A stretch of DNA of 64,000 bases from an uncultured Chloroflexia bacterium (GTDB taxonomy: Bacteria; Chloroflexota; Limnocylindria; Limnocylindrales; CSP1-4), in NCBI GenBank assembly GCA_963713095.1, contig CAVQKK010000009.1, forward strand, positions 196,991-260,990. The letters are read 5' to 3'. Shown one piece after another: positions 2,643 through 46,783 of this stretch (positions are counted from its first letter, which is position 1; each line of letters begins with the position of its first letter). Below the pieces are notes generated by a model, which did not search any database, was not told where the DNA came from, and saw nothing but the letters and a program-made list of their open reading frames with translations. Made by a program: the position numbers and the translations under genes.

Positions 2643-3367
2643 TCAACACCCGCTACACGCCGTCACAGCTGGGCGTCCGCCCGGCCCCGGCCCTCGTCCA
2701 GCAGCTCCTGGTGGGCGCCTTCGGCTGGATGTTCGCCGGGCTTCTCCTGTCGGCAGGCGTGGCCTATCTCGTGACCACCAGCACCTCGTTGCTGGAGACC
2801 GTTGCGCAGTGGTGGCTGCCGATCATCATCGGCCAGTTCGTGCTGGTCATTGCGATCCAGGCTGGTATCCGGCGCTTCTCGGCGACCGTCAGCCTGGCGT
2901 TGTTCTTCGTCTACGCGGCCACGATGGGTATGACCCTGGGCTTGATCGTGTGGGCGTTCACCACGACGCCGACCGGGACGACGTCGAACGGCGCCGCGGC
3001 GGTGGCCACGGCGTTCTTTGCCACGGCCGCCATGTTCGGCGCCGCGGCGGTCTACGGCGCAGTAGGCAAGCAGGATCTGACCAAGCTCGGCGGGATCCTG
3101 TTCATGGGCCTGATCGGGCTGCTCGTGGCCATGGTGATCAACATCTTCCTCGCCTCGAGCGCGATCTCGTGGCTCATCTCGATCGGCGGTGTCGGGCTGT
3201 TCGCCGTGCTGACTGCGTACGACGTCCAGCGCATCGCGCGCGGGGACTACGCGGCCATCACCAGCTCTCCAGAGCGCGGCTCGATCATCGGCGCCCTCCA
3301 CCTGTATCTCGACTTCATCAACATGTTCCTGTTCATGCTGCGGCTGTTCGCCGGGTCGCGGAGCTAG
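2639..3367 (+). CDS. Bax inhibitor-1/YccA family membrane protein
   Basis: Seven predicted TM helices with a BI-1 style C-terminus ('AYDVQRIARGDY...ALHLYLDFINMFLFMLRLF'). GTG start at 2639 after GAGAGGAG. The upstream part of the track ORF (from 2525) overlaps the previous gene and is Arg-rich. Confidence 0.7.
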   Translation: MINTRYTPSQLGVRPAPALVQQLLVGAFGWMFAGLLLSAGVAYLVTTSTSLLETVAQWWLPIIIGQFVLVIAIQAGIRRFSATVSLALFFVYAATMGMTLGLIVWAFTTTPTGTTSNGAAAVATAFFATAAMFGAAAVYGAVGKQDLTKLGGILFMGLIGLLVAMVINIFLASSAISWLISIGGVGLFAVLTAYDVQRIARGDYAAITSSPERGSIIGALHLYLDFINMFLFMLRLFAGSRS

Positions 3368-6300: not shown

Positions 6301-7380
6301 GAACGCCTCGGCGTTCACGATGGCCTGCGCCGCCTGTCCCGCGAAGATCTCGAGGGTCTGCTGATCGTCATCCGAGAACTGGTCGTAGCCGGCGTGAGAG
6401 ACCACGATCACGCCCAGGACCCTGGACTCATAGGTCATCGGCACCAGCAGCATCGACTCCGGGCCGCGCGTGGCGCCAATCAGCCTCCCGCGCTGGTCCG
6501 AGGCCGCATCGCCAAGGCGGATCGTCTCGTTGCGGAGAGCGACCCAGCCGGTAAGGCCCTCGCCGATCCGGACCCGCAGCTGGTCCGGCGACGGGCGGCC
6601 GATCCCCATGAACTCGCCCTGGAATGCGATCGGCTCGCACATGCGGGTCCGTTGATCCACCCGGTAGACGCGGATCGTGTCGTGGGCGATCAGCCGGTCA
6701 GCCTCGGCGACGATCGCCTCGCCGATGCCCTCGACGTCCTGGATCCGGTTGAGTCGCAGCGAGAGCTCCTGGATCGCGCGAAGCCTGGCGGCACCCTGAC
6801 GGACGGTGTTGAACAGCCGCGCGTTGGCGACTGCCGTGGCCATCTGACTGGCGAACGTCGCGCACAGGTTGAGCTCGTCCGGCGTCCACGAGTACGGGCG
6901 GCGGTGGTACAGGACCAGGAGCCCCAGGGGTTCGTCACGAAAGACCATCGGGATGAAGGCGATCGTCCGAATGCCGAGCCGCTGGTACACGGGGGCGAAG
7001 AAGGCCGCGCCGGCTGGATCGTCGAGCACGATCGGCCGCCGTTCGCGGATGCTGCGCTGGCCGGTCGTGTCATCGTCCACGGTCACGGCGGTCACGGCTT
7101 CGATCAGCTCGGCTGCCACAGCGCGCTGGGCCGCCAGCCGGAACGGGTGTCGGCCGGGGTTCAGCAGCCATAGTCCGGCGACCTCGGCGCCGAACAGCTC
7201 ACCGGACGCGTCGAGGACGTCCTGGAAGACCTCCTCGAGCTCGAGATTCGCGCTCACCTCGCTGGCCACACGACGGAGGACCTCGGCGCGCTCGGCGCCG
7301 GATCCCGGCCTGTTCATGGGCTCTGCCTTCCGTCCATTGGGGCGGCGATCCGGCGAGCCGTGGTCCGGCGCGAGTGCCAT
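3364..7380 (-). CDS. multidomain c-di-GMP signalling protein: multiple GAF domains, a GGDEF domain (intact RYGGDEF), a second GGDEF (degenerate, VGSDEF) and a C-terminal EAL domain
   Basis: 1338-aa ORF with two 'TGL(R/S)NR' GGDEF-start motifs. The EAL region reads 'LHYQPMV...VEALLRW...ELEITES...DDFGTGYSSLSYL'. An alternative start is M22 (position 7317), which has a GGAAGG-like RBS. Confidence 0.8.
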   Translation of the reverse strand: MALAPDHGSPDRRPNGRKAEPMNRPGSGAERAEVLRRVASEVSANLELEEVFQDVLDASGELFGAEVAGLWLLNPGRHPFRLAAQRAVAAELIEAVTAVTVDDDTTGQRSIRERRPIVLDDPAGAAFFAPVYQRLGIRTIAFIPMVFRDEPLGLLVLYHRRPYSWTPDELNLCATFASQMATAVANARLFNTVRQGAARLRAIQELSLRLNRIQDVEGIGEAIVAEADRLIAHDTIRVYRVDQRTRMCEPIAFQGEFMGIGRPSPDQLRVRIGEGLTGWVALRNETIRLGDAASDQRGRLIGATRGPESMLLVPMTYESRVLGVIVVSHAGYDQFSDDDQQTLEIFAGQAAQAIVNAEAFGQVRRQRQELRHRLESQRRLLEVNERLLATLDPSGVLEMIADSLNAVVAYDSLAVYRIDRAAGVRRAVVARDRFAEEILSHEGAIDVGLTGWAIRHHEAVLANDAHRDPRSVQIPGTPEEPESMIVCPLLIGGEVIGTLNVGRLGGAEAHYARDEFELVQLFAAQASIALRNAEAHGAVMTRAERDALTGLRNHGAFQRELGIMVDAGEPFALLMLDLDAFKVYNDRHGHPVGDTLLTRVADAMTETIREGDRAYRYGGDEFAILLPGVDGPQARHVMERVRATVARLTERAGPLVTISAGVSGYPADGATKDELVEAADRALYLAKPPSLRGHGEEDPTRDPYLAAVDRTTLALLEHLDPEDLLREIVDRATELVGIRDGFLYLLEDGDDGQPTMTVRVGVGTFEHLVGYRLPTGTGVGWEVVRTGRPVVIDDYDAYPDRAPDLETERFGAVCSVPLRSGGRVTGCIGLASGEANRPLAERQIGAVARFAQLASIAIDHVRLLEHARSEGSQRAYAALHDPVTGLSNRTELLDRLAALMGNPPAVDGRTAAANPPAANPPASPARVALIVLDLDRFTFVNESLGHAAGDQLLAQVGRRLVGAARPSDLVARVGSDEFGILLDRVRSPRDAERAAARLATALAEPFDLGGREVTVAASLGLAVARPSVATPADLLKEADIALHRAKADPMRTLVRFDPEMRAQSLELATMEHDLRRAIERSELRLHYQPMVNLADGTVVGVEALLRWQHPDRGLVPPLSFISLAEETGLIVPIGQWVLETACRQARSWQRFGAAAPPVVSVNLSARQFAQSDLVDRVAATLADAGLDADALELEITESVVMDQSEASIERLQALRRLGVKLVLDDFGTGYSSLSYLRHLPLDTIKIDRAFVSGLGSDAADLPIARAVISLAHGLGIGVVAEGIETTTQLDCLRDLGCDRGQGYSFARPLASEQLEALLEGAKGAPLKLRPEPAETLEG
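4616..4645. repeat. in-frame 15-nt perfect tandem duplication (CCGGAGGATTGGCCG x2) inside the GGDEF/EAL gene, encoding PAANP-PAANP
   Basis: Read directly from the sequence: '...gccggaggattggccgccggaggattggccgcc...'. Confidence 0.8.
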
Positions 7381-7704
7381 GGGTCGGATGGTGGTGCCCT
7401 AGCGGCTCGTCCGCTGCCGAGTTCGGCGCGGTGTTGAGGTGTCAGCTCGCACCGTACTGAGCGTGGCTGGGTCGGGCGATAGGACGGTCGTACTCCGGGC
7501 CCGAAACGGATGGTCGCAGGGCGCGTCGTTCGCGGGCCACGGTCAGTTGCCCCCCTCAATCAGCCCGCTCGCGCGGCCGAGATCGCGTCCGGGCTCCAGT
7601 GGGCTGCCGGTCGCCGATCCGCGCCTATCACGAGGTACGGGCCCGCTTTCCCGGCGGGTTCACAATGGGCGCGGGAACGTGACCATGCGCTGAGGTGAGA
7701 TGCG

Positions 7705-8307
7705 ATGCGGATCGCGGTGATCGGGGCCGGCAACGTCGGCGGAGCACTCGGCAAGGCGTTTGTCGCCGTCGGGCACGAGGTGGTGTTCGGCGTGCGCGCC
7801 CCCGACAGCACCAAGACCCTCACCGCGCTGGCAGAGATCCCATCGGCGACCGCGGCATTGCCGGCCGAGGCCGTCGACGGGGCCGATGTGATCGTGTTCG
7901 CGCTCCGGCCCGTGGCGATCGGAGCCATCGTCGCGGACCTGCCGCCGCTGGCGGACCGGATCGTCATCGACGCCATGAACCGCCTCGACACAGACCCGCC
8001 ACGCTCGACTACCGAGGACCTCATCGAGCTCCTGCCCGGTGCCAGGTTCGCCAAGGCGTTCAACACGATCGGGTTCGAGAATCTGACCACCGCCCGGGAT
8101 CGCCGGACGCCGCTGGCCATGTTCGTGGCTGGCGACGACCCCGACGCCAAGCGAGTGGCGATGGGTCTGGCCGCCGAGATCGGGTTCGAACCCGAGGATG
8201 CCGGGGGCCTGTCGAATGCAAGGCCCCTCGAGGAGATGGTCCGGGTCTGGATCGCGCTGACGCAGACGCACGGCCGCACCGTGGGCTTCGCGCTGTCAAG
8301 GTCCTGA
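7705..8307 (+). CDS. NADP oxidoreductase, coenzyme F420-dependent family (NpdG-like F420:NADPH reductase)
   Basis: 'MRIAVIGAGNVGGALGKAFVAVGHEVVFGVR' is an N-terminal Rossmann motif typical of this family. Length is 200 aa. Confidence 0.65.
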   Translation: MRIAVIGAGNVGGALGKAFVAVGHEVVFGVRAPDSTKTLTALAEIPSATAALPAEAVDGADVIVFALRPVAIGAIVADLPPLADRIVIDAMNRLDTDPPRSTTEDLIELLPGARFAKAFNTIGFENLTTARDRRTPLAMFVAGDDPDAKRVAMGLAAEIGFEPEDAGGLSNARPLEEMVRVWIALTQTHGRTVGFALSRS

Positions 8308-8363
8308 CCACCCGACGTCGATCAGATGAGATTGCGTGGTTGCCCCATCCGGCGATCGGCACC

Positions 8364-8395
8364 GCGTACGTGGTACGCATGCGTACCGTGTACGC
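8364..8395. promoter_or_regulatory. near-perfect 32-bp palindrome (candidate TetR operator) containing a perfect 16-bp core GGTACGCATGCGTACC
   Basis: 'gcGTACGtgGTACGCatGCGTACCgtGTACGC' carries four GTACGC half-sites. It sits between the F420 reductase stop (8307) and the TetR start (8408). Confidence 0.5.
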
Positions 8396-8407
8396 TATGA
8401 TGGCAGC

Positions 8408-9097
8408 ATGAATACTGAGTCGATGGACGCCAACGAGACCTCCGTTCGGCCCGTCCTCAGCCGGGACCGCATCGTCGAAGCCGCAGTGGCCGTTGTGGAC
8501 GAAGCAGGAATCGACGGGCTGACCATGCGAGCCGTGGGTAGGCGCCTGCGCTCGGGCACGATGTCGCTGTACCGCCATGTCTCGGGCCGTGACGAGCTCG
8601 TGGGCCTGGTCCTGGAGGCGATGGCGGGTGAGATCCAGGCGTCTCCCCTGTCGGGCAGCTGGCGCGAGGACCTCGCGATCATCGCCCGAGACATGCGCAC
8701 GGGCCTGCTCAAGCGGCCGCAGCTGACCATCCTGCTCGCCTCGCGATCTGGGCGAGGTGGTGTCGAGCTTCCGCTGCTCGATCGAACGCTGGGCGTGCTT
8801 CGAGCCGCCGGATTCGGGCGGCGTGGGGCCGTCCTCGCCAACCATGCCCTGGGCAACTACGTCGCCGGCACCGCGCTGTGGGAGGCCGTCGGGCTCTCGG
8901 GATCGAGCGGAGAGGATCGCGAGTCACGACGTCAGGCCGTGGCTGACGTGACGGCGGCGCTCCCGGCGGACGTGTTCCCGAACCTCGCCTGGGTGGGACC
9001 CAAGATCGTGGCCGGCAGCGTCGACGACCGGTTCGAGTTCGGCCTGACGTGCCTGCTCGACGGGTTCGAGGCCTACCTCGCCCGACGCAAGGGATAG
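8408..9097 (+). CDS. TetR/AcrR family transcriptional regulator
   Basis: N-terminal HTH 'RDRIVEAAVAVVDEAGIDGLTMRAVGRRLRSGTMSLYRHVSGRDELV'. Length about 229 aa. Confidence 0.75.
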   Translation: MNTESMDANETSVRPVLSRDRIVEAAVAVVDEAGIDGLTMRAVGRRLRSGTMSLYRHVSGRDELVGLVLEAMAGEIQASPLSGSWREDLAIIARDMRTGLLKRPQLTILLASRSGRGGVELPLLDRTLGVLRAAGFGRRGAVLANHALGNYVAGTALWEAVGLSGSSGEDRESRRQAVADVTAALPADVFPNLAWVGPKIVAGSVDDRFEFGLTCLLDGFEAYLARRKG

Positions 9098-9175
9098 GGC
9101 GGGCGCGGCCGCGCGGATCAGACTCCGCCGCGGATCAGGCGGGCGCCACCTCCGGCTCGACCGTCCTCGCTCGAC

Positions 9176-9198
9176 GGGGATAGTAGTAGAGGCCCTCG
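9176..9198. repeat. left imperfect inverted repeat (GGGGA-TAGTAGT-AGAGGCCCTCG) at the island boundary
   Basis: The reverse complement of 21547-21570 is GGGGGG-TAGTAGT-TAGGGGCTCG. It lies exactly at the high-GC to lower-GC transition. Confidence 0.35.
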
Positions 9199-9244
9199 AA
9201 GGGGCGGCTCAGTCTGCGATAACGCTGAAGCTCGTCTGAGCTAC

Positions 9245-9759
9245 TCAGGAGACGTGCGGCGTCCAAGTCCATGCCGCCGGCTCGGAGCTCACGGAGCAAC
9301 TCCGCCTCGCAGCCCCGCCCGACGGTACATAGAGCACGCCGTCAACATCGCTTGGACGCTCCACTTCACCGGCAACGAGGGCGACCAGTGCTCACGTCCA
9401 AGGAGGCCGATGAAATAGCAGAGTTCGAGAATGACATTCTGGCGGGCTCGGGACTGGAGTCCCTCTAGCGGAACTCCGTCGCTGGTAGCGGCCTCAAGCG
9501 CACGAAGTTCCGCGCCCAGGTCGTCTGGTGTCATCACGACAACCGCAAACGCGACGTCCACGTTCGCCTCGAACTTCTCGATGATCGTTCGCCCGCGGTT
9601 CGGTTCCTCGACGAGGATCACAGGTTCAAGGCCCACGAGGGTCATAAGCCTGGCAACCGCGTCCCGTGGCCCGGCCTCATGTCCGTGCACGATGAAGACG
9701 CGTCCCGATGCGCCCGTGCGACCTCGGGACTGCGCGAGCCGGCATCGACGCGCACGCAA
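9245..9759 (-). pseudogene. TIR-like nucleotide-binding domain protein (COG4271/pfam10137 type), disrupted by a frameshift near 9385
   Basis: 'RVFIVHGHEAGPRDAVARLM...EPVILVEEPNRGRTIIEKFE...VDVAFAVVVMTPDDLG...RARQNVILELCYFIGLLGR'. After a -1 shift the sequence continues '...VERPSDVDGVLYVPSGG', the canonical PSD.GV.Y C-terminal motif of this family. Confidence 0.5.
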
Positions 9760-12700
9760 CTGGCTCTAAGCGAACGTCCCCGGTCCGCCACGGACTGCGG
9801 CGAGCGTCGGAGGCGCTCATGTCATCGTCGCAGCCTTCGATCGGACGGCTGAGTCCGCCAGCTGCGGGGCCAATGCCAGCTTCGGAGACCCCGATACGAT
9901 CAAGGGTGAGTTGCAGCTCCTCGAGGCATCGCGCGTCGGGCGCGAGGTGGACTGCGCAATCGGCGGCCGTATTCGAAGAACGGTTTGAAGAATTTGGCCC
10001 GTGCGTATCGCAGAACCGAGTGCGGCGGCGAGAAGTTGTATCTCACGAATGAGAGCGTCCATTAGGCGTCGCTCTCCCATTCCAGCAGTTCTTACGGACC
10101 CTCAGCCAGAGGGCGCCTCCGACTGACTTCCCACTCCCGATCGATCGCCACTGCGTTTTGTGGGTTTGTAAGGGTTGGTCGAAGCTCAAGGGTAACGAGA
10201 GCGTTCTGGTAGCTGCAGAAATATCGGCACAGAGACCGGTTCAGGACCAAGGTTGCCGAGTACGCAGCGTGAGGTGGTACCACCTGGCAGTCTCCACGTG
10301 ATCAGCGCGGAGACACCCGACCACTCCAAGCGTATAGCATCACAGCTAACACCTCGCGCATGCTAGTCTCCGCGATCGGTTCCACAGCACGTTCGTAGTT
10401 GTCGATGCGGGTCGTGAGCTCAAGCAGCGCCGATAAGAAAGTCCCCGAGCTCGGGATCTGATCCGGTTGGTCGAACTCAGGAACAAGCGTCTCGTGAGCG
10501 TCTCAGCTGAATCGGCGCTGCAGCCAAGCGACGCCGCCTTCAGGACGTAGAAATTCGCGAGCTCGTTAGGATCCGAAGCGGATATCGTTTCAGTGTTGTA
10601 ATAGGTACTAAACTAAAAATATGAGTGTACAAGCTACCAAAATGGAATAAGACTCGCACTACACTGTACAGCAGTCTCGTGCAGTTCTGGACGATCTCCC
10701 GCGCAGACCGCCTCAAGGTTGCGCGCCCACTGGGATCCGACGCCGAGCGACCAATAAACACATAGCGCCGGAATGAGCACCACATCATCGCGGACTGTCG
10801 GGTGGACTATAATATGATATAGAGAATATAATAGCTTACGAGTGAGCGCGTGGTTGAATTCCCCGCGTGACAGAAGTATCGTAATCAGTAAGAGAGAGCT
10901 AAGTAGCCGACGATCAGGACGAAGTACTGGTAATCGCGAATGACGGATAGTGCGGTCTAAATATTTGAAGGTTTGGCGGTGCTGGAAAGTCGAGCGCCTC
11001 CAGTTAGGACCTCGTAACGTACTGCTCGAGTTACCATTTCACACTCGATCGTATGTCTTCAAGGTCGCGAACGGTTGAACTCACGAATACGAGAGTTGCG
11101 CCGGGTGGTAATACAGAGTCGACCACAGCTCCTCGCTAACGGTGTGTGTAGAGCGGCGATAGCGAAGCAAGCGCAAACGCGATCCCCTCACTAGGTGCTA
11201 GTACGCCTCCTAGAAGAAGTCCTCGTCAAGGCGGTAGCAGTGAAGGTGCTCTTCGGCTGGACGCTAACCCGGTAATAGACCATGTGCCGGACAACCCTAG
11301 CCGAAAATCAAGACGATCCGAACTCGAAGAACAAGAAGAAAGAATGAGACGGCGTGAAGAACGTCGTGAAATTATTTTTTTGAGAGAGTGCTATGAATAG
11401 AACTAAAGAGAAGAACTGCAAGATGAATAGTATCACTACCACTTCACAGCGTTTACCTGGACGTAGACCTTGTCGACCCGAGCTTGTCCTCATAGATACA
11501 CCATCAACCCGACGTGCGCCCGACATGCTCGCAGGGGCTGTTGGACGGAGATCTCTCTTATCTCATTGCGACGAGCTCATCGAGTACTCGCGCCGAAGAA
11601 GTCGGGTTTTCTCGCTTTTAGTTTCGCGAGTAGCGCTTTTTCTAGTTCGCCGCGCAGATTCCGATACGTCGTCTCCTCTTGCTCCTCGGGCGTGAGAACC
11701 GACTCAGCAGCGTGCTCGGCTCTCTGTTCGTTGTCGCTAGTAGATGTCTTCGACTTACCGCCGATGAAGTTGACGATCTCCGCCTTCGCACCGCCACCAG
11801 CGCCTGGCCGATCAGCCACGGGTTGACCATCAGCAGATCCGCACACGCTAGGTTCCGGAACTTGCCGTGTCCCTCTGATCCGAGCAGTCCAGCGTGGCGC
11901 ACGCACGTCAACGCTCATTGTGTTCGGTTGTTGACGTGCGCATGCGCCCGAGGCAGGAACTGCGCGAGATCCCGAGGCCGAGCTTATACAGCCACGCGAT
12001 CTGCTCCTCGGCCTCTGCTCCGGTATGTATCTCACAATCGCCGTCGAACCGGAGCAGGAGCACCATCAGACACGGTAGACGAGAACGTCCACCTTTCCCT
12101 CCATAGCGGATTGCGATACTCCAAGCCTTCGCACCGCCGACGGCCTCGTTGGCCCTCAGCCAAAGCTACGGGTTGACCATCCCGTTCGTCGGCTTCTCGC
12201 GTCACGCAAAATAGTCATCACCCGACTCTGCGACCGCTCGCATCACCCGTTCCTCCGCAGCCGCGAGCGCACGGTGAACTCTGGCGCCTCGGTCAGCTCC
12301 ATGGTCCGAGCGCTCCCACTCCCGAGCCCGGCACCACGACCCCCATCGTCATCCAGCGGATCCTCGTGAACATCGCTCGACTCAATCCGTCTCGGCCTCC
12401 CGAGCCGGTTGCTCTCCTGCCGATGTGGCGGACAGTGATGGCGATTACGTCGAGCCGCGGCAGGACCCCGACGCTTCCACGGTATCCACGACCGCCGACT
12501 GGTTCCCTCCTTCACCGTCACGGCGTCCGGTTGGGTGAGCAAGTCGTATAGTGCGCAGGCGGACGCACCCGCGCTCGCCACCCGGTCGGGTGGTCTCCCG
12601 TAGCGGGACCCCAGTCCGTCGTCGACTCACGGCATACGCAGGTACTCGTCGGGTTTGCTCGACTACGAGGCGATGGAGTGATAGAGCGGCCGGCGAGCTC

Positions 12701-13288
12701 GGCGGTTGCGGCACCAACGTATCGAGGTGTGCATCAGGAGGAAGCTGAACGGCTTCACGCTCGCGGCGTACGACCGGCTTGCGTTTTACTGATCGAACAA
12801 TCCTGCCAGTACGGGCGTGGTGATCGGCGCCTGGCTCACGGCGGGTAGATCGAACCATGAGGGTTCGGCACCCGGATCGTCACCGTTCGTCTCCGCGATG
12901 ATCCGGCGCCACCGATCTCGACCCATACGGGCCACGTCGCATGCCAATCGTCGGCGTTCGATCGGTGCTGATACAGCTCAAGGCTATGGTTAGATGCCTT
13001 GCGGATGACGATGCCCGCGGGGGTCAATAGAACAGGCATACCGCGAAGTGCTGGTCGAGATAGCTACAGTCGTGACGTGCGAAAATGGCACAGTGCCGAT
13101 TGATCGGACCAACGGCGCGCGGATCTCCCGGCGGGCGGCCCCAGATGGCTCTCGAGGGCGGCGATTGGGTGCCTTCATCGTCTCTCGTCTATGTGATGCG
13201 AAGTGACCGATGCGAACTTATGGTTTTTGATATGGTTTAGATTAATGTATGTTTCTTATACTCGAGCTTGAGCATATCGGGGATCGTA

Positions 13289-14284
13289 TCACGATCGTAC
13301 GGATTGAGTAGGTTGATGGTCGCAGGATGCGTCGACGACGGCCTCATGACAGCGCCCGGACCGCAAGGGCCCATCGGCCGATGCCGATCCTACGGGAGCA
13401 GGCAACGAGCCCACGACAGGCGTCGACACGATGGCCACCGAGTCAGTGTCGCAAGCGACATAGGACCCGATGCCGGCAGCGACGTGGCCTGGGCGAGCCC
13501 GAGCGGCAGGCCCCGGCAGGCTGTTGGTGCCAGTGCAGGGAGCGCCGGCATTCATGGCAGTGACGCCCGTAGGTGCAGTGCGGAGAACGCCCAGCCCGAT
13601 CGCAGCTCAGCGACACCCGTGGATGACGTGGCAAGCACTTGAGGAACTTGTCGAGGCGTTAGCGTTCGCTCTCCGGCAGCGTACCGTGTTTGATCCGCCC
13701 GTTCCTTGATGACTTGGCGAAGAGGTCGTAGCGCAGTAGGTGGATCTAGACGCGTAATGGAGAAGAAAGTTGTGTAATAATATGTAATTAAAGTAGAGAG
13801 TAATTGAATCGCTGAGGATTTCCCGCTCATTGGGGTGGGTGACGGCGATGAGGCGAGGGTTGCCAGAGCGGACCAGGCGACATTTGACCCGATCGTCCAC
13901 GCGCCACGCCCGCCTCGGCGACCAACGCGACGGCACGAGGACCGCCACGAGCGACATGACGATGAGCACTGGAAACACGTTGGCCAGCACGCGTCCAGCC
14001 AGTCACATGGAGCCGATGACTCGTGATTGTGTCGAGGAAAGCCGCCGCGTCGGCGGTGGCGTCGACCGCTCGAAGTGGTCCGAGATCACGTGCGTCCACA
14101 GATCGAGCAGGACGAACACGGTCGGGTACATCGACGCGAAGTCGACGTACCGCACCGGGAGCTCGACGCCGCGGATCGGCACTCGGTCCGCCCGCCGTAG
14201 TAGGCGGTCATCGAGTACCCCAGGACCGCGTCGGCCACGAGGTTGGAGCGCGCCATCGGCTGCCTGTCCCGAGGCGAAGGTCAA
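13289..14284 (-). pseudogene. family B DNA polymerase (PolB) remnant, heavily decayed and frameshifted
   Basis: Three conserved motifs are present. A YxGG motif ('GYSMTAYYGGRTE', about 14178-14216) is followed about 22 aa later, after a 1-nt frameshift, by motif A 'VRYVDFASMYPTVF' (about 14090-14130). Compare Pfu '[30 protein letters not shown]'. Motif C 'SYVACDTDSVAIV' sits at 13436-13465. A degenerate motif B-like 'AKSSRNGRIKHG' lies in the AT-rich stretch between them. Confidence 0.5.
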
Positions 14285-14430
14285 GAGCCATGCCGCAGCT
14301 GGAGGCGGAGACCCCGTTTGGGGTCGGCCCCGCGCCTATCGAGGGCGATCCTCGGTGCCATCCGGGTTGAACCGGACGACCGTCGGCTGTAGCGAAACGT
14401 GGTCAGCACACCGTGCGCCGCGACGGTGTC

Positions 14431-16113
14431 CTAGTGGTGCTCGACCTCGAACTCCTTGGCGGCCGCATCGGGCCCCAGCGAACGATCGGTGAGCACGTAA
14501 GAGAGGGTGTGTATGTCGAGGAACAGCACTTGGTAGTAGTCACGTTCGCCGACGAGGTTCGACTCATCCACGATCACCGGGCCGGTGAAGCCGATGAACT
14601 GACGCTTGGAGCCCAGCGACTGGACCTGGAGGTGGGTCGGAACATTCGACCTCGATGGGTCCCATCTTGGCCATCGGCATCGGGGCCCAGCGAACGATCT
14701 GGAGATTTCGACCCACCTGCACCGATCGCGGCCAGCCTTCCATTTCCACAGAGGCAGACGTGCCAAGCGGCCGGACCATGAGGCCCGACAGGGCCTTCGA
14801 ATGCCAGAGAACACCCCTATCCGGCGAGGGTGGCTGGCGATGGCGAAGCGTTCCAGAGCACTACCCCGGGATGAACCGTCAAGCCTCTTGTGGAAATGTA
14901 GCGAGCGGGCGCTTCGGCCGCATGCGTCTCGACGTAGCGCTCGAGGACCGCCCGGTCGGCCGGTGCCAGGTCGTCCGCGGCGATCAGGCCCTCCTGGAGG
15001 AGCTCCCGTCCCGCGCGCGGTACACGCGCTATCTGCCGAACAGCAGGTGCTGCGACGTGGCGAAGATCGTCTCGGTGACAAGCACGACCTCGAGCTCGGA
15101 CGGCTCAAGCGACTCTTGTGGATGTAGCGAGCGGGTGGGACGGTTGTAGGCGCGAACGGCAATCGGACCTTTGTAGGTCCCGGAGCGTCGGCGCCGGCTC
15201 ATGCCGCGATAGGGCTCGATGGCGCACCCTTCCACCACTCGGGTCCAAGCTGCTCGCGCAGCCACACGACGAGCCGGATCAGCCAGGCCGCGCTCGGCCA
15301 CAGGAGACTTGAGAACCGGCCAGCACCTGGCCCGCTACGAGGATCGGGTCGGCATCGGCTCCGGCCATCGCCTGAGCGAGCCGATGCGCTGCTCGGTATC
15401 GCGGGGGCGATCGGACGCAGCCGGCGGCGCAGCTCTCGGAAGGCACGCTCGATCAGGTTGGTCGTGCGCAGGCTGGCCCGGAGCGACTCGGGCAGCGCGA
15501 ACACGGCGAGCAGGCTCTCGAGATCGCGCTCGAGGTTGCGCACGAGGCCCGGGTGCCGTGAGCCGCCAGCTCCTCGCCCAGCGCCGGCCGCAGTACGCCG
15601 GCCGTGCTCCTCGCTGGTAGACCCGTAATGGAGCTCGTGGCCGGCGGCCAGCCGGTCGACGACTCGGCACGGGTGACGAGCAGGACCCGCCGGCCGTCGA
15701 GCGTGAACGTCTTTCGACGTAGCTAAAAGAGCAGGGTCGCGCGCTCGGCCCGGAGGTAGTGAGAGCGCGTCGAGTACGTTCCAGAGGGATGCGATGGGTC
15801 CAGCAGCGCTGGAGGGCGACGCCTCGGGGAACGGTCGTCGGGACGGTATTTCTCGCGGAATGCGATCGAAGGCTCGAGGTCTCCACCGCCGGCCGCAGCC
15901 GCGAAATCCCGTCCGGCGGCGAAGGCCGTCGGCGCGTGACCAGCAGCACCTGATCGGGATCGAGACCCCCGCTCGACGAGCGAGGTCAGCAGTCGAGCGC
16001 GCGTTCACGAGCGTATGGGTCCCTAATTCGAATTCTTGTAGCCACAGCCATGGACTCCGCAGCGAGATCGCTCCGGTGGACGGTTCCACCGTTGGCGAAA
16101 CCGTCCACCTCAC
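14431..16113 (-). mobile_element. IS256-family (Mutator-like) transposase remnants; no intact ORF
   Basis: The signature 'FALPESLRASLRTTNLIERAFRELRRR' (about 15445-15525) is the IS256 C-terminal motif. Flanking frames are scrambled. A roughly 35-bp direct repeat 'tcaagc.nctcttgtgga(a)atgtagcgagcggg' occurs at about 14880-14914 and 15103-15136. Confidence 0.4.
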
Positions 16114-16128
16114 GCGGGCACTGTTGTA

Positions 16129-16946
16129 GTGCGAGATTCCCCGCTATGGCAAGAGAGCCGCGGTCTACGAGGAACTCGCCGCTTGGGCAAGGTCGCAGCA
16201 CTACCCGAGGGTGACGGGCTCGGTTGTTCACCTGTGGGTGAAGAGGGCGCTCCTGCCGCGAGCCGGCCGCCGGTACACCGCGTTCGGTGTATACCAAACG
16301 ACCCTCGGACCCGGGACACGGGAGCAACTCCCAGGCTATGCCACTACCGATACGAGGTCGGCATTGGCCGGACGGCCTTGCTCCGTGGCCTGCTCTGGCT
16401 CGAAGGGTTCGACCTCCCGCCGGATGCCATTCGGGAGGCGCTCGAACGCTATCGGCGACGCCGCCTGGAACGAGAGCGGGCCATCAAGCGCCGGGCGGCA
16501 CGCCGCGATGCAGAGGACGATCCCGACGACTTCATTGTCGAGTACATGGCGATGCAGCCGCTCTGGAATCTGATGCTTCCCGAGCTCTCGTCCATCGAGC
16601 GAACAACGGTGCTCACGGAGGTCGCGCTGTCCCTGGCCCTCGGCGACCGCATCTCGCCCTTCGTAATGCGGATGATCACCCGCGAGTTCGCCGGGACGCG
16701 CCGTTCGACCGGGGAGCATTCTCGGGCCTCATGGAGGGCTTGCGGTCGGTCCATCGGGAGGCTGCGGAGGTGACCGATCAGCATCTCGCAACCGCGCGCA
16801 GGCTGTCGGCCGACGGCTATGGCGAACGCGTGACCGACCAGCCCTCACGGGCTCAAGGTAGCGGGCGCTCCAACGGCTCGCGGCGTCCGGTGCCAGGCAG
16901 GCCATCGGGGCGTTCCGACGCCATGCGGGCCGGGCAGAAGCGCTGA
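16129..16946 (+). CDS. hypothetical protein within the island, no recognisable family; apparent frameshift near 16700
   Basis: Coding-like GC3 in 'YRYEVGIGRTALLRGLLWLEGFDLPPDAIREALERYRRRRLERE...FIVEYMAMQPLWNLMLPEL...'. Coding potential continues in another frame ('...FSGLMEGLRSVHREAAEVTDQHLATARRLSADGYGERV'). Confidence 0.3.
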
Positions 16947-17096
16947 CCGACCCGCAACTGACGAGAGCGGACGACCCCGTCGAATGAGACAATGGGGACA
17001 TCACCATAGCGCCCCCGCGGCCGCGGTAACGGCCCGGGGGCATGGCACACGGAGGTCAAGTCCGCATGCGCCGTCAGGCTATCGATCGCGGGCAGC

Positions 17097-18673
17097 GTGG
17101 CCAGCCGACCTCACGCCCCCGCGGGGTGTCCTCGTCCTCTCTGGCTACGGCCTCTCCGGCGTGTGTGGCGAGGCCGGCTCAGGGTCGCCGACGGGATCGG
17201 GCGGCTCCGCCAGGAAGGGTTCGTCCACCGCGCCACAGGTGGACTCAAGCGCATGGTCGTTCTCGGCCATACCGGGTCGATCACGTTCGATGCGATCCGC
17301 TGGCTCGCCGACATCGGTGCGGGCTACGTCCAAGTCGACGAGGACGGGCGGGTACTGGCGGCGTTCGGGCCGCAGGGCACCGACCGGCCACCGGTGCGGC
17401 GTGCCCAGGCGGACGCGCTCGACACGGCATGGGGGATCGTGATCGCCCGGGAGCTCATCCACCGCAAGCTCGATGAGCAGGTGCGGACGCTGCGCGACCT
17501 CGAGCAGGTACTGCGGGTTGATCCCTCTGCATGGGCGGCGATCGAGCTGGCGCAAGGGAGGCTCCGCATCGCCGCGACGCGCGATGACATCCGAATGGCG
17601 GAGGCTGCAGCGGCGGCTGCGTACTGGGGGCCTGGGCGCCGCTGGAGCTCCGCTGGGCGCGTCGGGACGCCGACCGGGTGCCGACACACTGGCGCACGTT
17701 CGGGTCACGAGCGTCGCCGCTGACCGGTGGCACGAGGCTTGCGGTCAATCCGGCCAACGCGATCCTGAACTACCTGTACGCATTGCTCGAGGGGGAGGCA
17801 TCCATCGCGGCACGGATCGTGGGGGTCGATCCGGGGTTGGGCGTCCTCCATGCCGATCAGCTCAACCGCGACTCGCTGTCGGCAGACCTCATGGAACCGG
17901 TGCGTCCGATGGTGGATCGATACGTGCTCGATCTGCTATCCAAGGGCCCCTTTGCAGCGTCGGACTTCCATGAGACCCGTCAGGGCGTATGTCGCATTAC
18001 CCCACCATTGGCGCATGAGCTGGCGATGACATCGATCGAATGGGGGCGATGGGCGGGTCGCATCGCGGAAGATGTCGCCACGATGCTCGAGCATGGGGCA
18101 ATGGATGGTGCCCCATCGAACCGGGCACCATCACGATCGAACGGGAAGCGATCGCTCCCAACCCCGATCAGTGGGCGCAATCGGAGCACCGGACGGGGTA
18201 GATCCAAGGGGCGGAAGCATGGTTCGACCACACCGAGGGTGAGTCGAGCATGCATCCATTGCGGGGGTCCGGTTCCATCGGGACGCATGACGTGTGGGGA
18301 CGCATGCGAGCAAGCGACCCGCGCGATTGGGGTCGATACGTTCGCGTCGGCAGGGGCGGAGGCGCTCCGCAAGCGGCATGCGGAAGGGGTCGCGGTTCAG
18401 CTCACTGATGCGGGACGAGGTCGGTTGCGCGACCGCGCATCGAGCAGGGTCCGCGAGGCCCGTGCATGGCAACGCGAGCATGCGTGGCCATCGGACCCTG
18501 ATCGGTTCGAGCGGGAGATCCTGTCAGGGCTGGCAAACGTGCCGGTTCGCGATCTGGTCGAGGCGACCGGACTCTCCGATGCCTACTGCCGGAGGATCAA
18601 GCGGGGACAGGTGGTGCCCCATCCGATGTGGTGGGACGCGCTCCGGAATTCAGTCAAACCGGAACCCGAATAG
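17097..18673 (+). pseudogene. Cas1-family integrase homologue with a C-terminal Zn-ribbon + HTH extension (casposase-like / Cas1-solo). One single-base frameshift in a G5 run at about 17627-17631.
   Basis: N-terminal part: 'LKRMVVLGHTGSITFDAIRWLADIGAGYVQVDEDGRVLA...VRRAQADA...ARELIHRKLDEQ'. After the shift: 'AVNPANAILNYLYALLEGE...GVDPGLGVLHADQLNRDSLSADLMEPVRPMVDRYVLDLL'. These contain the Cas1 catalytic motifs GxLH and DLMEP.R. The C-terminus has 'CIHCGG...CGDAC' and an HTH 'VRDLVEATGLSDAYCRRIKRG'. No cas2 or CRISPR repeats are nearby. Confidence 0.65.
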
Positions 18674-20319
18674 ACCGCCGTCTTCAGTGGCGTCAGTCAG
18701 ACGTGGCTCAACCACGCTCTCGTGACCCAAGCTATCGACAAGCTGCGGCCAGTCGTCTGAGTTGAGGGTTACGAGGTACTGGAAACCAACTCGTTCGGTC
18801 TGGCCGCGAGCATATTGGAGCGCGGTGCCCACCTGACGAACGTCCACGCCGTCGAAGAGATGGCTGTCGTGAATGAGGAAGCCTGGGGCAACTCCAGCGG
18901 ACGCGGCGGCCGCGTACAGGGCCATGTCGAAGGAGAAGATCTCCATTCTTCTCACCCCTGAACTGCGATCGCCTTGGATCGCCGGTCGGAGCTGAAGGCC
19001 CGACGCATCGACCGAGATCTCAAGGCTACCGGGCTCCTCGTACAGGAAGCCGGAGGCGTGCTCAAATGACCTCGCCACGCGCTCCAGGGTCGCCTCCTGC
19101 TCGGCGAGGTCCTGCTGTAGCCGCAGCAACTGCTGGCTCTTTTCGACTCGGAGCTCTGCCCGACGCCGCTCGACATCGACGGCCGATGAGAGTGCCTCCC
19201 GAGCCCTGATTGCGTCCAACTCCGCCTCGGCAAGTTGCCGCTGAATCGCGAGAAGCTGCTCAGTGGCGCCGTGCTCTCCAAGCAGACGCCGAAGTTGTTC
19301 CTGGCGAGTGGTCAGGCGTGAGACCTCGCGTTGTCGGCCCTGGATGCGAGCTCCGGGCGCCGCCGTCTCCCCATCTAGGTAGCGGCCTCGGTTGCGCACG
19401 ACGGCCTCGTGAAACGCTTGGGCTTCGTCGAGGCGATGCATAACGAGTTCAGGGCATGACGATGCCGAGCTTCTCGTATGCGGGCGTCACGTCGACGGCT
19501 TGGTGCTGCAATCTCAGCCTGTAGAGCTTCGTCGACCTGGGTGATCTGTCGGCGATCGACCACATCCAGGTCCGCCAAGGACCCGAGGGTCTCCGTCACG
19601 GCCGCTAGCTCAACCTCAAGGTCGTCGTATTGTGGAAGGACCCGGAACTCAGAGGCCGCGCGTCTAAGCTCCTCGAGTCTCCCGTCCGCACGTGCAGCGC
19701 GTGCGCGGAGTTCCCCGGAATAGGCCCGGCGGTTGAGGGTGGCATCCTCCTCGCGAATCCGCTGGAGCTCGGCCGCGATCTCCCAGTCCAAGCCCAGTAA
19801 GTACATGAGCCACGCCTCTTGGTTCCCACGCGGCTGCTGAGGGAAGTACTTGAGAGGCGACAAGAAGCCCCCGGTGGCCTCACGGCGGGCGAAGTACCCG
19901 AAGAGTTGGCGCATTGACGGTTCGCCGGGTGCTCCGGTCAAGCCAAACCAAGCCCTCCCTAAGTGCTGCTTCCATTCGTCGACCGAGAGGCCCTGAGCCT
20001 GGCCATCGTCGCCGAGTCCAGTGACCTCGACATGGCCGAGCGTGGACGTCGAGCGCTCGACACCCAGGGTGGATCCCGCCACATCCATCTCCATCCCAAA
20101 GGTCACACCCTGGAGCGCCTCCTTGCGAAACAAGGAGCGCTGATCAACGTTTGCGCCGGTTAGGAAGTGGATGATCTCCACCAAACTCGACTTGCCAGCC
20201 CGGTTTCGAGTCTGCTGGTCGCTTGAGATCGCGGTTCGGTCCGCAAGAACCACACTGAGGCCTGGGCGGAATGACATCGCCTTGAATGAGTTCAACGAGC
20301 TCCAGACGCGGTAGATCAT
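18650..20319 (-). pseudogene. SMC-like ABC ATPase of an ABC-3C/Lamassu-like defence module; frameshift near 19340-19440
   Basis: The N-terminal half (19375-20319) has the Walker A 'TRNRAGKSSLVEIIHFL' followed by a long coiled coil. The C-terminal half (18650-19441) has more coiled coil, then 'GDRSSGVRRME' and a Walker B-like 'GFLIHDSHLFDGVD'. The two halves overlap by 67 nt in different frames. Confidence 0.6.
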
Positions 20320-20558
20320 CTCTTCGCGAGCCGTCCATCTCGCAGATCCACAGCATCGATCGCGTAGAGCAGGTCCAGGGCAAGCACGAACCAGTCGAAC
20401 GGGACCGCTGCCTCACCAGTCCAGCTGCCGGTCTCGCTGCGCTTGTACCGATCCCATAGGGCGGTGACCGGGGCAGGCTCAGCGAGGAGTGTGAGCACCT
20501 CCGCACCTATGTGGATCAGCGAGCGCCGTTGGTCGAGGTGTTTGGTGGGAAGGATCAC
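20316..20558 (-). CDS. small (80-aa) alpha-helical middle component of the three-gene ABC ATPase module
   Basis: Both ends overlap the flanking genes in ATGA junctions. Ends 'FDWFVLALDLLYAIDAVDLRDGRL'. Assignment rests on size and position; the middle-component family is not securely recognised. Confidence 0.4.
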   Translation of the reverse strand: MILPTKHLDQRRSLIHIGAEVLTLLAEPAPVTALWDRYKRSETGSWTGEAAVPFDWFVLALDLLYAIDAVDLRDGRLAKR

Positions 20559-21478
20559 GGCACGCCCGTCGGCACATCATCGAAGATGTCGCAGCGCTCG
20601 AACAGATAGGCGAGGAGGGCCAAGGCCGCAGCCTGCTCTGCTGGGACGACGACGCGGTCCCCACTGACGAAGGCCTGAAGTTCGGCGAAGATTCGGTCCG
20701 GGCCTAGGCCGTGGCCCTTGAGCTCCTCATACCTGGCCCTGAAGGCCGCCGCGACGCGATCGGCCAACGCAGGGTTGGGCGACCTCCCGAAGAACTCGCG
20801 CACTTGTGGCGTCCTCTCCATGCCGACCACGAGGAGACGCCGCACGAAGTCAGACAGCCTGTTGTACTCGAGCTTCTCCGGGGAGGGCGCGGTGACAGAC
20901 GGAGCGATCGGGACCGGGCCGAGCGCCAGCGCTTGCACGAGCGGCTCAATGGCATCAAACCGGAGACCAATCACGTCGCGCCGCTCGGGAGCCGGGCCCA
21001 AGAGCGCGCGGATGTCCTCGTCCGACAATCGGAACACCTCGTCGCGAATGGCCTCGAGCGACCAAGTCGCCACTGTGAGGCCCTCGGGATCGTTGGCCTC
21101 GGGCGTCTTAGCCTCCGCGAGTACGTTGCAAGCGACGCCGAGGGGGTGGTTGTGGACGTAGACCCACTGCTTCATGGTTGGCCAATGAGTCTTTGCCCCA
21201 GCGAAGTCAGCCTTCATCTTCGCCACGCCCCGGGCGTCCATCTCGTCCGGCCCATAGCACTGGAACACTGTTCCACTGCTCGCTAGGTAGCCATCATTCT
21301 TCAGATCGCCAGTTGGCCCCGCTGCCCTGACGCGCACAAAGTCCCTTGGGTGTCCAAGACTCATCACGTCAGCGAAGAAATCCTGGAAGGCGGCGCCACG
21401 ACGCTTCAGGAACTCAACCTGCAGGCGGAGTTCGTACCAGTCCCTGGCTACCTGATCCACCGACTCCCCCTGCCGCAC
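20555..21478 (-). CDS. predicted effector component of the module: N-terminal PD-(D/E)xK nuclease-like region (possibly LmuA/Cap4-like) plus a helical C-terminal domain
   Basis: 307 aa. 'HPRDFVRVRAAGPTGDLKNDGY' is compatible with a D...D-x-K nuclease core. The stop overlaps the start of the small middle gene. Confidence 0.35.
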   Translation of the reverse strand: MRQGESVDQVARDWYELRLQVEFLKRRGAAFQDFFADVMSLGHPRDFVRVRAAGPTGDLKNDGYLASSGTVFQCYGPDEMDARGVAKMKADFAGAKTHWPTMKQWVYVHNHPLGVACNVLAEAKTPEANDPEGLTVATWSLEAIRDEVFRLSDEDIRALLGPAPERRDVIGLRFDAIEPLVQALALGPVPIAPSVTAPSPEKLEYNRLSDFVRRLLVVGMERTPQVREFFGRSPNPALADRVAAAFRARYEELKGHGLGPDRIFAELQAFVSGDRVVVPAEQAAALALLAYLFERCDIFDDVPTGVP

Positions 21479-21546
21479 ATGCGCCTGCGAATGGAGTCTA
21501 ACGCGAGTGTGGGCGATCGCCCCGACCAGTAGGCGGCGGCAACTTC

Positions 21547-21570
21547 GCGAGCCCCTAACTACTACCCCCC
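21547..21570. repeat. right imperfect inverted repeat partner of 9176-9198
   Basis: 'cgagcccctaACTACTAcccccc'. It sits immediately before the GC content rises again. Confidence 0.35.
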
Positions 21571-21627
21571 AGACTCGTTGACGCGATCGCAGCGCGGAAC
21601 TAGACTCAATCCCGACGAAATCGGTCG

Positions 21628-21680
21628 GAATTCCCCGGCGCGGCGGCTCCCTCGCCGCGGGCGTCCCCCCGGGGAACTCC
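21628..21680. promoter_or_regulatory. inverted repeat GGAATTCCCCGG-N29-CCGGGGAACTCC upstream of the Rrf2-suf operon; candidate operator or structured leader
   Basis: Read directly; the arms match 11 of 12 bases and lie about 100 bp upstream of the Rrf2 gene. Confidence 0.25.
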
Positions 21681-21783
21681 GGCCGGTCGCCACGGCGACC
21701 CGACGAGGACCGAACCCCTGACCACGCGCGCGAGCTTCCACGGATCCGGCGCCCTTGCCTTCAGCACCAAGGGCGAGTACGGC

Positions 21784-25064: not shown

Positions 25065-26259
25065 ATGCCGAAAACCTATCCTGAGCTCCTCCGGGACGCC
25101 CGAACCGAGGTCCGGGAAGTCTCACCGGCCGAGGCGGACGCCCTCCGCCACCGGGGCGGGATCGCCCTGATCGACGTCCGCGAGGCGTCGGAGTGGGACC
25201 AGGGATACATCCCGGGGGCCACGCACGTGTCGCGGAGCTACCTCGAGCAGCAGATCGAGGGCGCCGTCCCCGACCGTGACATGCCGGTCGTGCTGTATTG
25301 CGCCGGGGGCGTCCGGTCGTTGTTCGCCGGCCAGGCGCTGCGCGCGATGGGCTATACGGACGTGGCCTCGATGAACGGTGGCTTCCAGGCCTGGAAGAGC
25401 CAGGGGCTCGACTGGACCCAGCCGGCCCGCCTGTCGGACGAGCAGAAGCTGCGCTACAGCCGCCACCTGCTGATCCCCGAGGTGGGGTCAGAAGGGCCAG
25501 GCCCGGCTGCTCGCGTCGAAGGTGCTGCTGATCGGCGCCGGCGGGCTGGGCTCCCCGGCCGCGCTGTATCTCGCCGCCGCCGGCGTGGGCACGGTCGGCA
25601 TCGTCGACTTCGACGTCGTCGACCTGTCCAACCTCCAGCGCCAGGTGATCCACACCAGCGACCGGGTGGGTGAGAAGAAGACCGACTCCGCGCGCCGGAC
25701 GCTGACCGCGCTCAACCCCGACGTCACGGTGGTGGCCCACGAGGAGATGCTGGTCGCCGACAACGTGGAGCGGCTGATCTCGGGCTACGAGGTGATCCTC
25801 GACGGGACCGACACGTTCGAGACCCGCTACATCCTCAACGATGCGGCGGTCGCAGCCGGGATCCCGGTGGTCCATGCGTCCGTGTTCCGGTTCGAGGGCC
25901 AGCTCACGACGTTCGTGCCCTACGAGGGCCCGTGCTACCGCTGCCTGTACCCGACCCCGCCCCCGCCGGAGCTTGCCCCCGGCTGCTCGGTCGCCGGCGT
26001 GCTGGGCGTGGTGCCCGGGATCATGGGCCTGCTCCAGGCCAACGAGGTGCTCAAGCTGCTGCTCGGGATCGGCGACTCGCTTGCCGGCCGGCTGCTGCTG
26101 TTCGACGCCCTGGCCACCGAGTTCACCGAGCTGCGGCTCCGCCGCGATCCCGCGTGCCCTGTGTGCTCGGACGAGGCGCGGACGGCCCGAGAGGCCGGGA
26201 CGCCGCTGCCCGTCGCCGCGGCCAGCGACGGCGTGTTCACGCTGGGGGCCGCGCGATGA
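25065..26259 (+). CDS. rhodanese domain fused N-terminally to a ThiF/MoeB E1-like adenylyltransferase (MoeZ-like sulfurtransferase); the ORF is interrupted by a 1-nt insertion at about 25497
   Basis: Rhodanese active site 'VLYCAGGVRS'. Frame 0 then reads 'QKLRYSRHLLIPEVGSEG'. The sequence continues in frame +1 as 'QARLLASKVLLIGAGGLGSPAALYLAAAGVG...CYRC...CPVC'. Removing one C restores 'EGQARLL'. Confidence 0.7.
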
Positions 26260-46019: not shown

Positions 46020-46128
46020 AGATCGAGTACCGGCACACCTGGGTCACGCCCCTCGCGAACCTCGTCTCCCTCGGCGGATCCGGCACCACGCTGACCCAGT
46101 CCAACGCCATGCGGATGGAACCCGTGCT

Positions 46129-46774: not shown

Positions 46775-46783
46775 GGACGACAA

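Follow-up and report, generated by a model that had tools for sequence, protein, structure and literature searches.

In the 64-kb stretch of DNA analyzed here (the window; contig CAVQKK010000009.1 of an uncultured Chloroflexia bacterium), positions 9176–21568 likely represent a decayed bacterial casposon of family 3 that is closest to AceAut-C1. The element has a length of about 12.4 kb and equals the whole island of low guanine–cytosine (GC) content in the window. It comprises a frameshifted gene for a Cas1-family integrase, the casposase, together with remnants of a family B DNA polymerase gene (polB), cargo of the defence type and two terminal inverted repeats. The locus is a fossil and not a working or new system. 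An initial annotation, based on the sequence alone, had described the integrase gene as a solo Cas1 homologue of the casposase kind that is split by a single-base deletion.

On the plus strand, two overlapping open reading frames (ORFs; 17097–17723 and 17678–18673) encode the Cas1-family sequence, and the addition of one base in a run of five Gs fuses both into a single frame, restoring AAYWGAWAPLELRW. The initial annotation had recognized this frame change and its one-base repair correctly, except that the run occupies positions 17626–17630 instead of 17627–17631. The Cas1 homology of the joined protein is real: It matches Pfam Cas_Cas1 with an E-value of 2.5e-38 over profile positions 34–268 of 283 and scores 118 bits, which is above threshold, with the generic NCBIfam cas1 model TIGR00287. 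As profile positions 1–33 were left unmatched, we compared the window DNA with intact homologues. In tblastn with the three full-length relatives P0001, P0002 and P0005 the gene falls into four frame segments, which correspond to residues 1–7 (MRRQAID), 8–30, 33–190 and 190–526. The true start is an ATG at 17066, preceded by a conserved GGAGG at 17051–17055, and the GTG at 17097 that had been taken as the start lies 31 nt downstream of it. Aligning the window DNA to that of four homologous loci fixed the sites of three 1-nt deletions, so that the assumption of a single one had to be given up: The first is located at 17085–17087 (GA-TCG in the window versus GATTCG in the homologues), the second at 17158/17159 (TCCG-GCG in the window), and the third inside the G-run (TGG-GGGCC in the window, TGGTCGGCC in the homologues, whose codon at this site is TCG). 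Two of the three sites lie outside homopolymers; a homopolymer slip at the G-run is a possible, though not a required, explanation of the third. The casposase pseudogene thus spans 17066–18673. Its 5′ leader (GGCACACGGAGGT.AGTCCGCATG, 17040–17066) belongs to a stretch of DNA that is conserved across loci whose proteins are only ~60% identical, and in the window it carries a 1-nt insertion between GGAGG and ATG.

Repaired at these sites, the product comprises 536 residues and aligns end-to-end with a family of proteins of roughly 520 residues. Its best match is 71% identical, and nearly all of the listed top 120 matches cover ~94% of the query. In an alignment of 25 sequences (the window protein and 24 homologues) it retains every invariant column. 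The catalytic residues E180, H263, D275 and E278 are invariant and all present in the repaired translation, just as the intact catalytic positions had been predicted, and each of the motifs quoted at that time (RRAQADA, NPANAILNYLYALL, GLGVLH and DLMEPVRP) was found again. The same holds for the C-terminal extension of about 200 residues, which contains four invariant cysteines (CxxC...CxxxC) forming the zinc ribbon, followed by a helix-turn-helix (HTH) domain (ATGLS..Y.R....G..PHP.WW). In AceAut-C1 Cas1, a zinc-binding domain and an HTH are both fused at the C-terminus (PMC4046053), and the layout of the window casposase is the one described there. The window consequently harbors a Cas1-family integrase with all four catalytic residues, though the assembled ORF is interrupted three times.

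The affinity of this integrase was assessed on the level of sequence, phylogeny and fold. When ranked by BLASTP against the reference Cas1 sequences in the alignment of additional file 2 of the casposon discovery paper (PMC4046053), the family 3 casposases come first: AceAut-C1 with 214 bits (47% identity over 301 residues), Saccharopolyspora spinosa with 184 bits, Nitrosomonas AL212 with 159 bits, Streptomyces albulus with 130 bits and Henriciella marina with 124 bits. Family 2 casposases follow at 85–114 bits and family 1 casposases at about 59 bits, while CRISPR Cas1 sequences show partial coverage and do not exceed 57 bits. In a neighbour-joining tree built from 288 columns with 100 bootstraps, the family to which the window protein belongs, including the window protein itself, groups with AceAut-C1 at a support of 100; the support is 88 for family 3 and 91 for all casposases. 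The fold search was conducted with an AlphaFold model of the closest intact homologue P0001 (predicted local distance difference test, pLDDT, of 82). The top three PDB matches of this model in Foldseek are chains of the M. mazei casposase 6OPM (E 9e-18), with CRISPR Cas1 structures next.

These data support the assignment of the gene as a real integrase of the casposase kind rather than a CRISPR Cas1, in line with what had been proposed. The opposite explanation, an ordinary Cas1 of CRISPR adaptation that lost its array and partner genes, could appeal to the score above threshold with TIGR00287, to homologues that are publicly annotated as ‘CRISPR-associated endonuclease Cas1’ and to one relative, L007, that adjoins a type I-E-like array. 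However, the subtype-specific Cas1 models of NCBIfam all remain far below cutoff for the joined protein, and sequence, tree and fold are all closest to casposases. Moreover, the 64-kb window contains no CRISPR array, no cas2 and no other cas gene, and scans for Rfam families, tRNAs and tandem repeats returned nothing relevant in it. A scan of species-representative genomes yielded 16 related loci with a long casposase match, which were taken with flanks of up to 10 kb: No array was found within 10 kb in 14 of them, whereas distant true CRISPR Cas1 matches (L023–L030), which served as positive control, do have arrays. Given additionally the linkage to polB and the terminal repeats and target duplications at the flanks, both described below, we regard a CRISPR adaptation Cas1 as effectively refuted.

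The term solo does not apply to the casposase gene either, since PolB remnants and terminal repeats surround it. On the contig of P0005, a divergently oriented gene for a protein of 1001 residues that carries no Pfam annotation is located upstream of cas1, followed by genes for 150, 156 and 85 residues. By eye, the 1001-residue protein displays the motifs of a family B polymerase (ExoI DTET, motif A DFTSMYPT, motif B KTVANGGAYG and motif C CDTDS). Sequence searches of the PDB, with either the single sequence or a profile of six sequences, gave no match, Pfam returned only a sub-threshold DNA_pol_B_2, and every match among the PHROGs is labeled ‘DNA polymerase’. Structure prediction and Foldseek settled its assignment as a family B DNA polymerase: With its AlphaFold model (pLDDT 90; predicted template modelling score, pTM, 0.88), the top 50 PDB matches are all family B polymerases, led by phi29 (E 2e-12). 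Some of the homologues weakly match the model for protein-primed polymerases, PF03175. In 12 of the 16 related loci an intact polB is adjacent and divergent to cas1; the hosts are mostly Chloroflexota metagenome bins, plus Bryobacterales, and a Myxococcota locus (L016) is without polB.

In the window, tblastn with the intact 1001-residue homologue revealed a shattered polB pseudogene on the minus strand at 12407–15163, so that the polymerase gene of the element is represented by a remnant. It is broken into eight pieces, and the reading frame changes at least six times; query residues 104–142, 371–602 and 922–1001 are gone, and the long pieces are only ~35% identical to the intact homologue. 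Motif A (DFASMYPT) and motif C (YVACDTDS) can still be made out. Between polB and cas1, the C-terminal fragment of an IS256-family transposase is inserted (15388–15560, minus strand), which was identified by NCBIfam NF033543 (E 4.9e-11) and Pfam Transposase_mut at residues 185–242 of ORF 15199–16113. It stands in the place of the gene for a 150-residue CxxC...CxxC protein that adjoins polB in the relatives, has no Pfam or PHROGs assignment and is missing from the window. Two further module genes have left traces: a weak remnant of the conserved 156-residue gene (15625–15975, minus strand; tblastn E 2.5e-4, 29% identity to the 156-residue protein of L001) and, just upstream of the casposase, a remnant of the conserved ‘295-aa’ type gene in two frames (16151–16419, plus strand; tblastn E 8e-12 with 59% identity over 46 residues, continued in the second frame). 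The C-terminal ends of PolB and of the casposase are formed by a homologous HTH (..EA[ST]GLSE..), which is found at L001:4684–4850 and 11420–11569 and also in L009, L012 and L015. As a candidate terminal repeat, we considered the best local alignment of the two outward-facing gene ends; it falls in the HTH-coding parts of polB and cas1 and was rejected, because this weak inverted repeat reflects protein homology.

Generic inverted-repeat searches around the Cas1–PolB module of eight loci gave no terminal repeats, because the ends lie further out than assumed. Alignment of the junction between island and host in the window with two syntenic loci revealed the common motif GCAACTT-N13-CTACTACCCC, which in the inward reading is GGGGTAGTAG-N13-AAGTTGCCGC and constitutes an inverted repeat of about 33 nt. 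This motif recurs once or twice in almost every related locus, with a terminus found in L001–L015. In L003, a 10.3-kb element with an intact casposase but no polB lies between two inverted termini, and on both sides it adjoins a perfect direct repeat of 14 bp (GACAGACGATTGAC). The terminal repeats of L011 enclose a 13.8-kb element with a perfect 15-bp target duplication. The search for target duplications of 14–15 bp that had been suggested was hence successful in the relatives. The targets have TTGAC as their last bases, or GTCAA as their first bases when read in the opposite orientation, and often coincide with a −35-like box followed by a −10 box of the TAGACT type. In L001/L006, L007, L012 and L014 a right end is followed by exactly 14–15 nt and then by another left end; these junctions are tandem insertions that share the duplicated target, and in L006 the same 14-mer occurs three times.

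A scan of metagenome contigs for an exact match to the 20 specified terminus bases returned at least 120 termini. Many of them are paired at distances of 0.8–5 kb with neither cas1 nor polB in between, and many others among the listed termini form junctions of end, 14–15 nt and end. Such miniature elements of 0.8–5 kb (L006:9503–11335, L032, L036, L059, L110 and others) have the same terminal repeats and often stand in tandem at a spacing of 14–15 nt; they look like non-autonomous derivatives comparable to miniature inverted-repeat transposable elements. Further arrangements were observed in two of the related loci. The L011 element contains two full-length divergent casposase genes and a third fragment at 7065–11395, again without polB. 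In L007 (1–4490), a type I-E-like CRISPR array (3100–4483, repeat GTCGTCCCCACGCGCGTGGGGGTGAACCG) directly follows cas7e-cas5e-cas6e with no cas1-cas2 between them, and its end is 4 nt away from the stop codon of the casposon polB; the same locus holds a second partial polB and another element end at 14843–17285.

In the window, the right terminal repeat is located at 21536–21568 on the minus strand (inward GGGGTAGTAGTTAGGGGCTCGCGAAGTTGCCGC). It is the only window match to GGGGTAGTAG-N13-AAGTTGC and has no mismatch, compared with 0.02 matches expected by chance. The adjoining target site (21569–21582, CCAGACTCGTTGAC) is the right copy of the target duplication and overlaps a −35-like TTGACG upstream of a Rrf2 gene. 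The homologous position is occupied in L015 (GTGTCTCGATTGAC) and in L011 (CTGCCGTTCGTTGAC, with the perfect 15-bp duplication). The left terminal repeat (9176–9210, plus strand; GGGGaTAGTAG-TAGAGGCCCTCGAAGGGGCGGC) is degenerate. On both strands of the 64-kb window it is the second-best match to the 36-nt terminus consensus (score 16 versus 24 for the right repeat), it faces inward, and it lies exactly at the step in GC content from about 0.70 to 0.54–0.66; given its degeneracy, the left boundary is based on this rank, orientation and GC step. Directly outside, 9162–9175 (CGTCCTCGCTCGAC) is a possible decayed left copy of the target duplication: The sequences CGTCCTCGCTCGAC and CCAGACTCGTTGAC are weakly similar, agreeing in 5 of 14 positions in register, and, allowing for one indel, share CTCG.T.GAC. 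A search of the window for a further copy of the 14-bp target sequence gave nothing better than chance matches. The element is hence bounded by a perfect right and a degenerate left inverted repeat, with clear pairs in the relatives.

Because the polB damage goes beyond sequencing error, the element can certainly no longer act as an autonomous transposon. For the casposase, the three frameshifts are probably real. They might alternatively be assembly or consensus errors, for instance if a long-read metagenome bin covered an accessory island poorly, in which case the casposase would be intact in the organism and represent a polymerase-less functional integrase as in L003; we consider this unlikely. 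A coding-frame hidden Markov model on codon-position GC, combined with homologue comparison, detected frame breaks outside the island as well. The gene for a ThiF/MoeB-rhodanese protein (25065–26259) occupies two frames owing to a 1-nt insertion near 25489, which was confirmed against the homologues in L003, L011 and L015. In a Tad pilus cluster (45557–48936; two TadE-like genes and one large TadG-like gene) there are approximately four same-strand frame switches, at about 45943, 46446, 47689 and 48024. In each case the protein sequence continues in the next frame, and either real decay or a local assembly error may be responsible. As ordinary genes of the window are also frameshifted, any single cas1 indel may be an assembly error. 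Such errors would also be compatible with the nature of the cas1 lesions, all of which are 1-nt deletions, with the preservation of every invariant residue in the repaired protein, with the intact casposase shown by L003–L005 in a PolB-less element with perfect terminal repeats and target duplication, and with the split genes in several related bins.

On the other hand, the three indels of cas1 fall within 545 nt, which over the whole gene gives about 1.9 per kb. Outside the island the density of frame breaks is about 0.1 per kb, whereas polB exceeds even cas1. Long genes elsewhere in the window are intact, with coding runs of 3.9, 2.5, 2.4 and 2.2 kb, and the neighboring genes of the element are degraded to an extent that sequencing error does not explain, as seen from the diverged and incomplete polB and the IS256 fragment. 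The position of two cas1 lesions outside homopolymers likewise speaks against a sequencing artifact; homopolymer slippage was also dismissed as a general cause of the frameshifts, most sites not being in runs of five or more. Finally, the repaired casposase departs from 7 of 135 highly conserved columns, compared with 1–3 in its nearest relatives and 0–9 in intact homologues overall, which would fit the view that cas1 outlived polB for a long time and was inactivated recently. The earlier proposal that the break may be an assembly error and the integrase functional does not hold as written, because two more frameshifts within the first 95 nt mean that repair of the G-run alone gives no working gene; a weaker caveat about assembly errors is justified in view of the ThiF/MoeB and Tad genes.

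Several observations weigh against our interpretation of the locus as a decayed family 3 casposon. The left repeat matches the consensus at about 24 of its 33 positions and contains an indel, and the adjoining left copy of the target duplication is barely recognizable. As flanks extended to 10 kb at most, none of the PolB-containing relatives could be followed to both of its ends, and the complete proof by repeats and duplication comes only from the PolB-less elements (L003, L011) and the miniature elements. Casposons of families 2 and 3 are reported to have an HNH nuclease gene, which was not demonstrated here. Moreover, in light of the frameshifts outside the island (one in ThiF/MoeB, four in Tad), some or all of the three cas1 indels could be consensus errors, and the 7 deviating columns, being within the range of intact homologues, provide no independent sign of a long-term decay of cas1.

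A further explanation would be a domestication of the casposase: It might serve a host function, for example as part of a defence island, and no longer belong to a mobile element. The casposase is indeed better conserved than polB (57–71% versus about 35% identity to homologues), L003, L011 and L019 have retained it in the absence of polB, defence genes adjoin it (ABC-3C in the window, SIR2_2 and DUF5655 in L001), and several related genomes carry an insertion at the same chromosomal site. Yet the PolB-less copies keep perfect terminal repeats and target duplications, which identifies them as transposons and not as fixed host genes, cargo and flanks differ between loci, the window copy itself is frameshifted, and the abundant miniature derivatives indicate ongoing transposition in trans. 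Domestication therefore appears highly improbable to us. More conceivable, though we put it forward only tentatively, is that the casposase of this clade acts as a stand-alone, site-specific integrase without a polymerase of its own, moving defence cargo and miniature elements into promoter sites with a −35-like TTGAC and regenerating the site by duplication, which leads to tandem arrays; the window copy would have been such an integrase until very recently, and would still be one if the three indels are consensus errors.

The cargo of the decayed casposon is located in both arms. Between cas1 and the right end, genes of an ABC-3C defence system on the minus strand adjoin the casposase gene and are cargo: a split ATPase (18650–20319), the middle component MC6 (20316–20558; Pfam MC6, E 2.4e-19) and an effector with a CTD10 domain (20555–21478; Pfam CTD10, E 2.8e-17). 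By these Pfam matches, the triad of DUF2326 ATPase, middle component and CTD effector is present. The ATPase is distributed over two ORFs that overlap in different frames, owing to one frameshift: The N-terminal one (19375–20319) carries the Walker A motif (NRAGKSS), the C-terminal one (18650–19441) matches DUF2326 with an E-value of 1.5e-33. With this split, the assembled system is probably not active. The corresponding position in L001 is taken by SIR2_2 and DUF5655 genes, from which it follows that the variable region next to the casposase carries cargo of the defence type. In the left arm, an ORF with a TIR domain of the CAP12/Pycsar type (9289–9759, minus strand; Pfam PF10137, E 2.6e-24) is probably truncated. 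The stretch at 9800–12400 is decayed cargo poor in ORFs: It contains no ORF of at least 200 residues and no Pfam match, and its GC content is 0.54–0.64 compared with about 0.70 in the host. One ORF in it (11577–12035, minus strand) resembles by eye the N-terminal part of Mrr-type restriction proteins, though Pfam gave no match for it.

Host synteny sets in at about 21704, where the right-hand genes are syntenic with L003, L011 and L015; they encode Rrf2, an ABC-type protein, cysteine desulfurase, NifU, the ThiF/MoeB-rhodanese protein, ThiS and CysK. The element sits in the −35 region upstream of the Rrf2-regulated cysteine desulfurase/NifU operon, and L011 and L015 have an insertion at this Rrf2-promoter site as well. 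A promoter-like region is conserved upstream of the Rrf2 gene (window 21583–21700, L015:12893–12960, L011:15659–15760), consisting of TTGACG, about 17 nt, TAGACT and then a palindrome, AATCCCGAC....GTCGGAATT, a probable operator for Rrf2. Part of the casposon target coincides with the −35 box, one copy of which is left beside the operon when the target is duplicated.

By analogy with its family, the intact element would have been a self-synthesizing DNA transposon. Its casposase, composed of the Cas1 integrase domain, a linker, the zinc ribbon and the HTH, would bind the terminal repeats of roughly 33 nt and join the element ends at staggered positions 14–15 bp apart in a target ending in TTGAC, thereby giving rise to the 14–15-bp duplication. 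The divergent family B DNA polymerase, which ends in the related HTH, is thought to copy the element, and variable cargo, often defence genes, would be accommodated between the core genes and the ends. The integration chemistry is presumed to be that of the casposases studied so far, and activity of the casposase on its own ends is suggested by the perfect target duplications and the abundant miniature elements among the relatives. The window copy shows the fragmentation of polB into at least eight pieces, replacement of the small core genes by the IS256 fragment, degeneration of the left end, the split of the ABC-3C ATPase and the three 1-nt deletions in the first third of the casposase gene. 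As the casposase sequence is otherwise fully conserved, it would have been lost last and recently.

Compared with known systems, the element agrees best with AceAut-C1 and family 3. Common features are the bacterial host, which is evident here from flanks and relatives, the zinc-binding domain and HTH at the C-terminus of Cas1, the close relationship of the Cas1 cores, the family B polymerase in the same element, the terminal inverted repeats and the target duplications, which comprise 15 bp in AceAut-C1 and 14 bp in NitAL212-C1 (PMC4046053) and were seen here in the relatives. Additionally, the termini start with GGGG(T/G)A..., like those of NitAL212-C1 (GGGGTATGTT...) and StrAlb-C1 (GGGGGAGTAGAGAG...). 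In contrast to AceAut-C1, for which terminal repeats of 602 nt are reported, those described here comprise about 33 nt, and the window copy is defunct. Further differences from family 3 are that the relatives found here are mostly from Chloroflexota, that the target is a promoter-region site ending in TTGAC and that the reported HNH gene was not demonstrated. Moreover, family 3 polymerases are described as closer to RNA-primed archaeal PolB, while some of those found here weakly match the protein-primed PF03175. Family 2, with the M. mazei casposase 6OPM as best structural match of P0001, likewise has a C-terminal HTH on the casposase and a related HTH at the PolB end (PMC9939771), and it shares tandem insertions at one target site; it differs in its archaeal hosts, the lack of a zinc ribbon between the Cas1 domain and the HTH, a sequence identity of 24–30%, other terminal repeats and targets at the 3′ ends of tRNA or EF-2 genes. 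CRISPR Cas1 proteins (A. fulgidus Cas1, PDB 4N06; type I-C Cas1) share the fold and the catalytic Glu, His, Asp and Glu, whereas the casposase is without Cas2, array and effector genes, has the extra zinc-ribbon/HTH tail and a polB partner, and resides in an element bounded by terminal repeats and target duplication.

While the locus on its own adds little, the clade reached through it is of more interest. A HMMER search with the closest intact homologue as query (E ≤ 1e-30, clustering at 50% identity) gave 965 clusters, and most of the top 150 also cover the C-terminal tail. Their public labels are mostly ‘CRISPR-associated Cas1’ or ‘hypothetical’. Open-access papers, to which the search was confined, mention no more than a few family 3 elements and a hot-spring family 5 that has been proposed, and we found no description of this large clade in them. 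The analysis thus exposes a large, poorly described group of bacterial casposons with polymerase-less and miniature derivatives and defence cargo, the ends of which are now defined by the GGGGTAGTAG-N13-AAGTTGCCGC repeat, the 14–15-bp duplication and targets ending in TTGAC. For annotators this means that such ‘Cas1’ genes are no evidence of CRISPR immunity.

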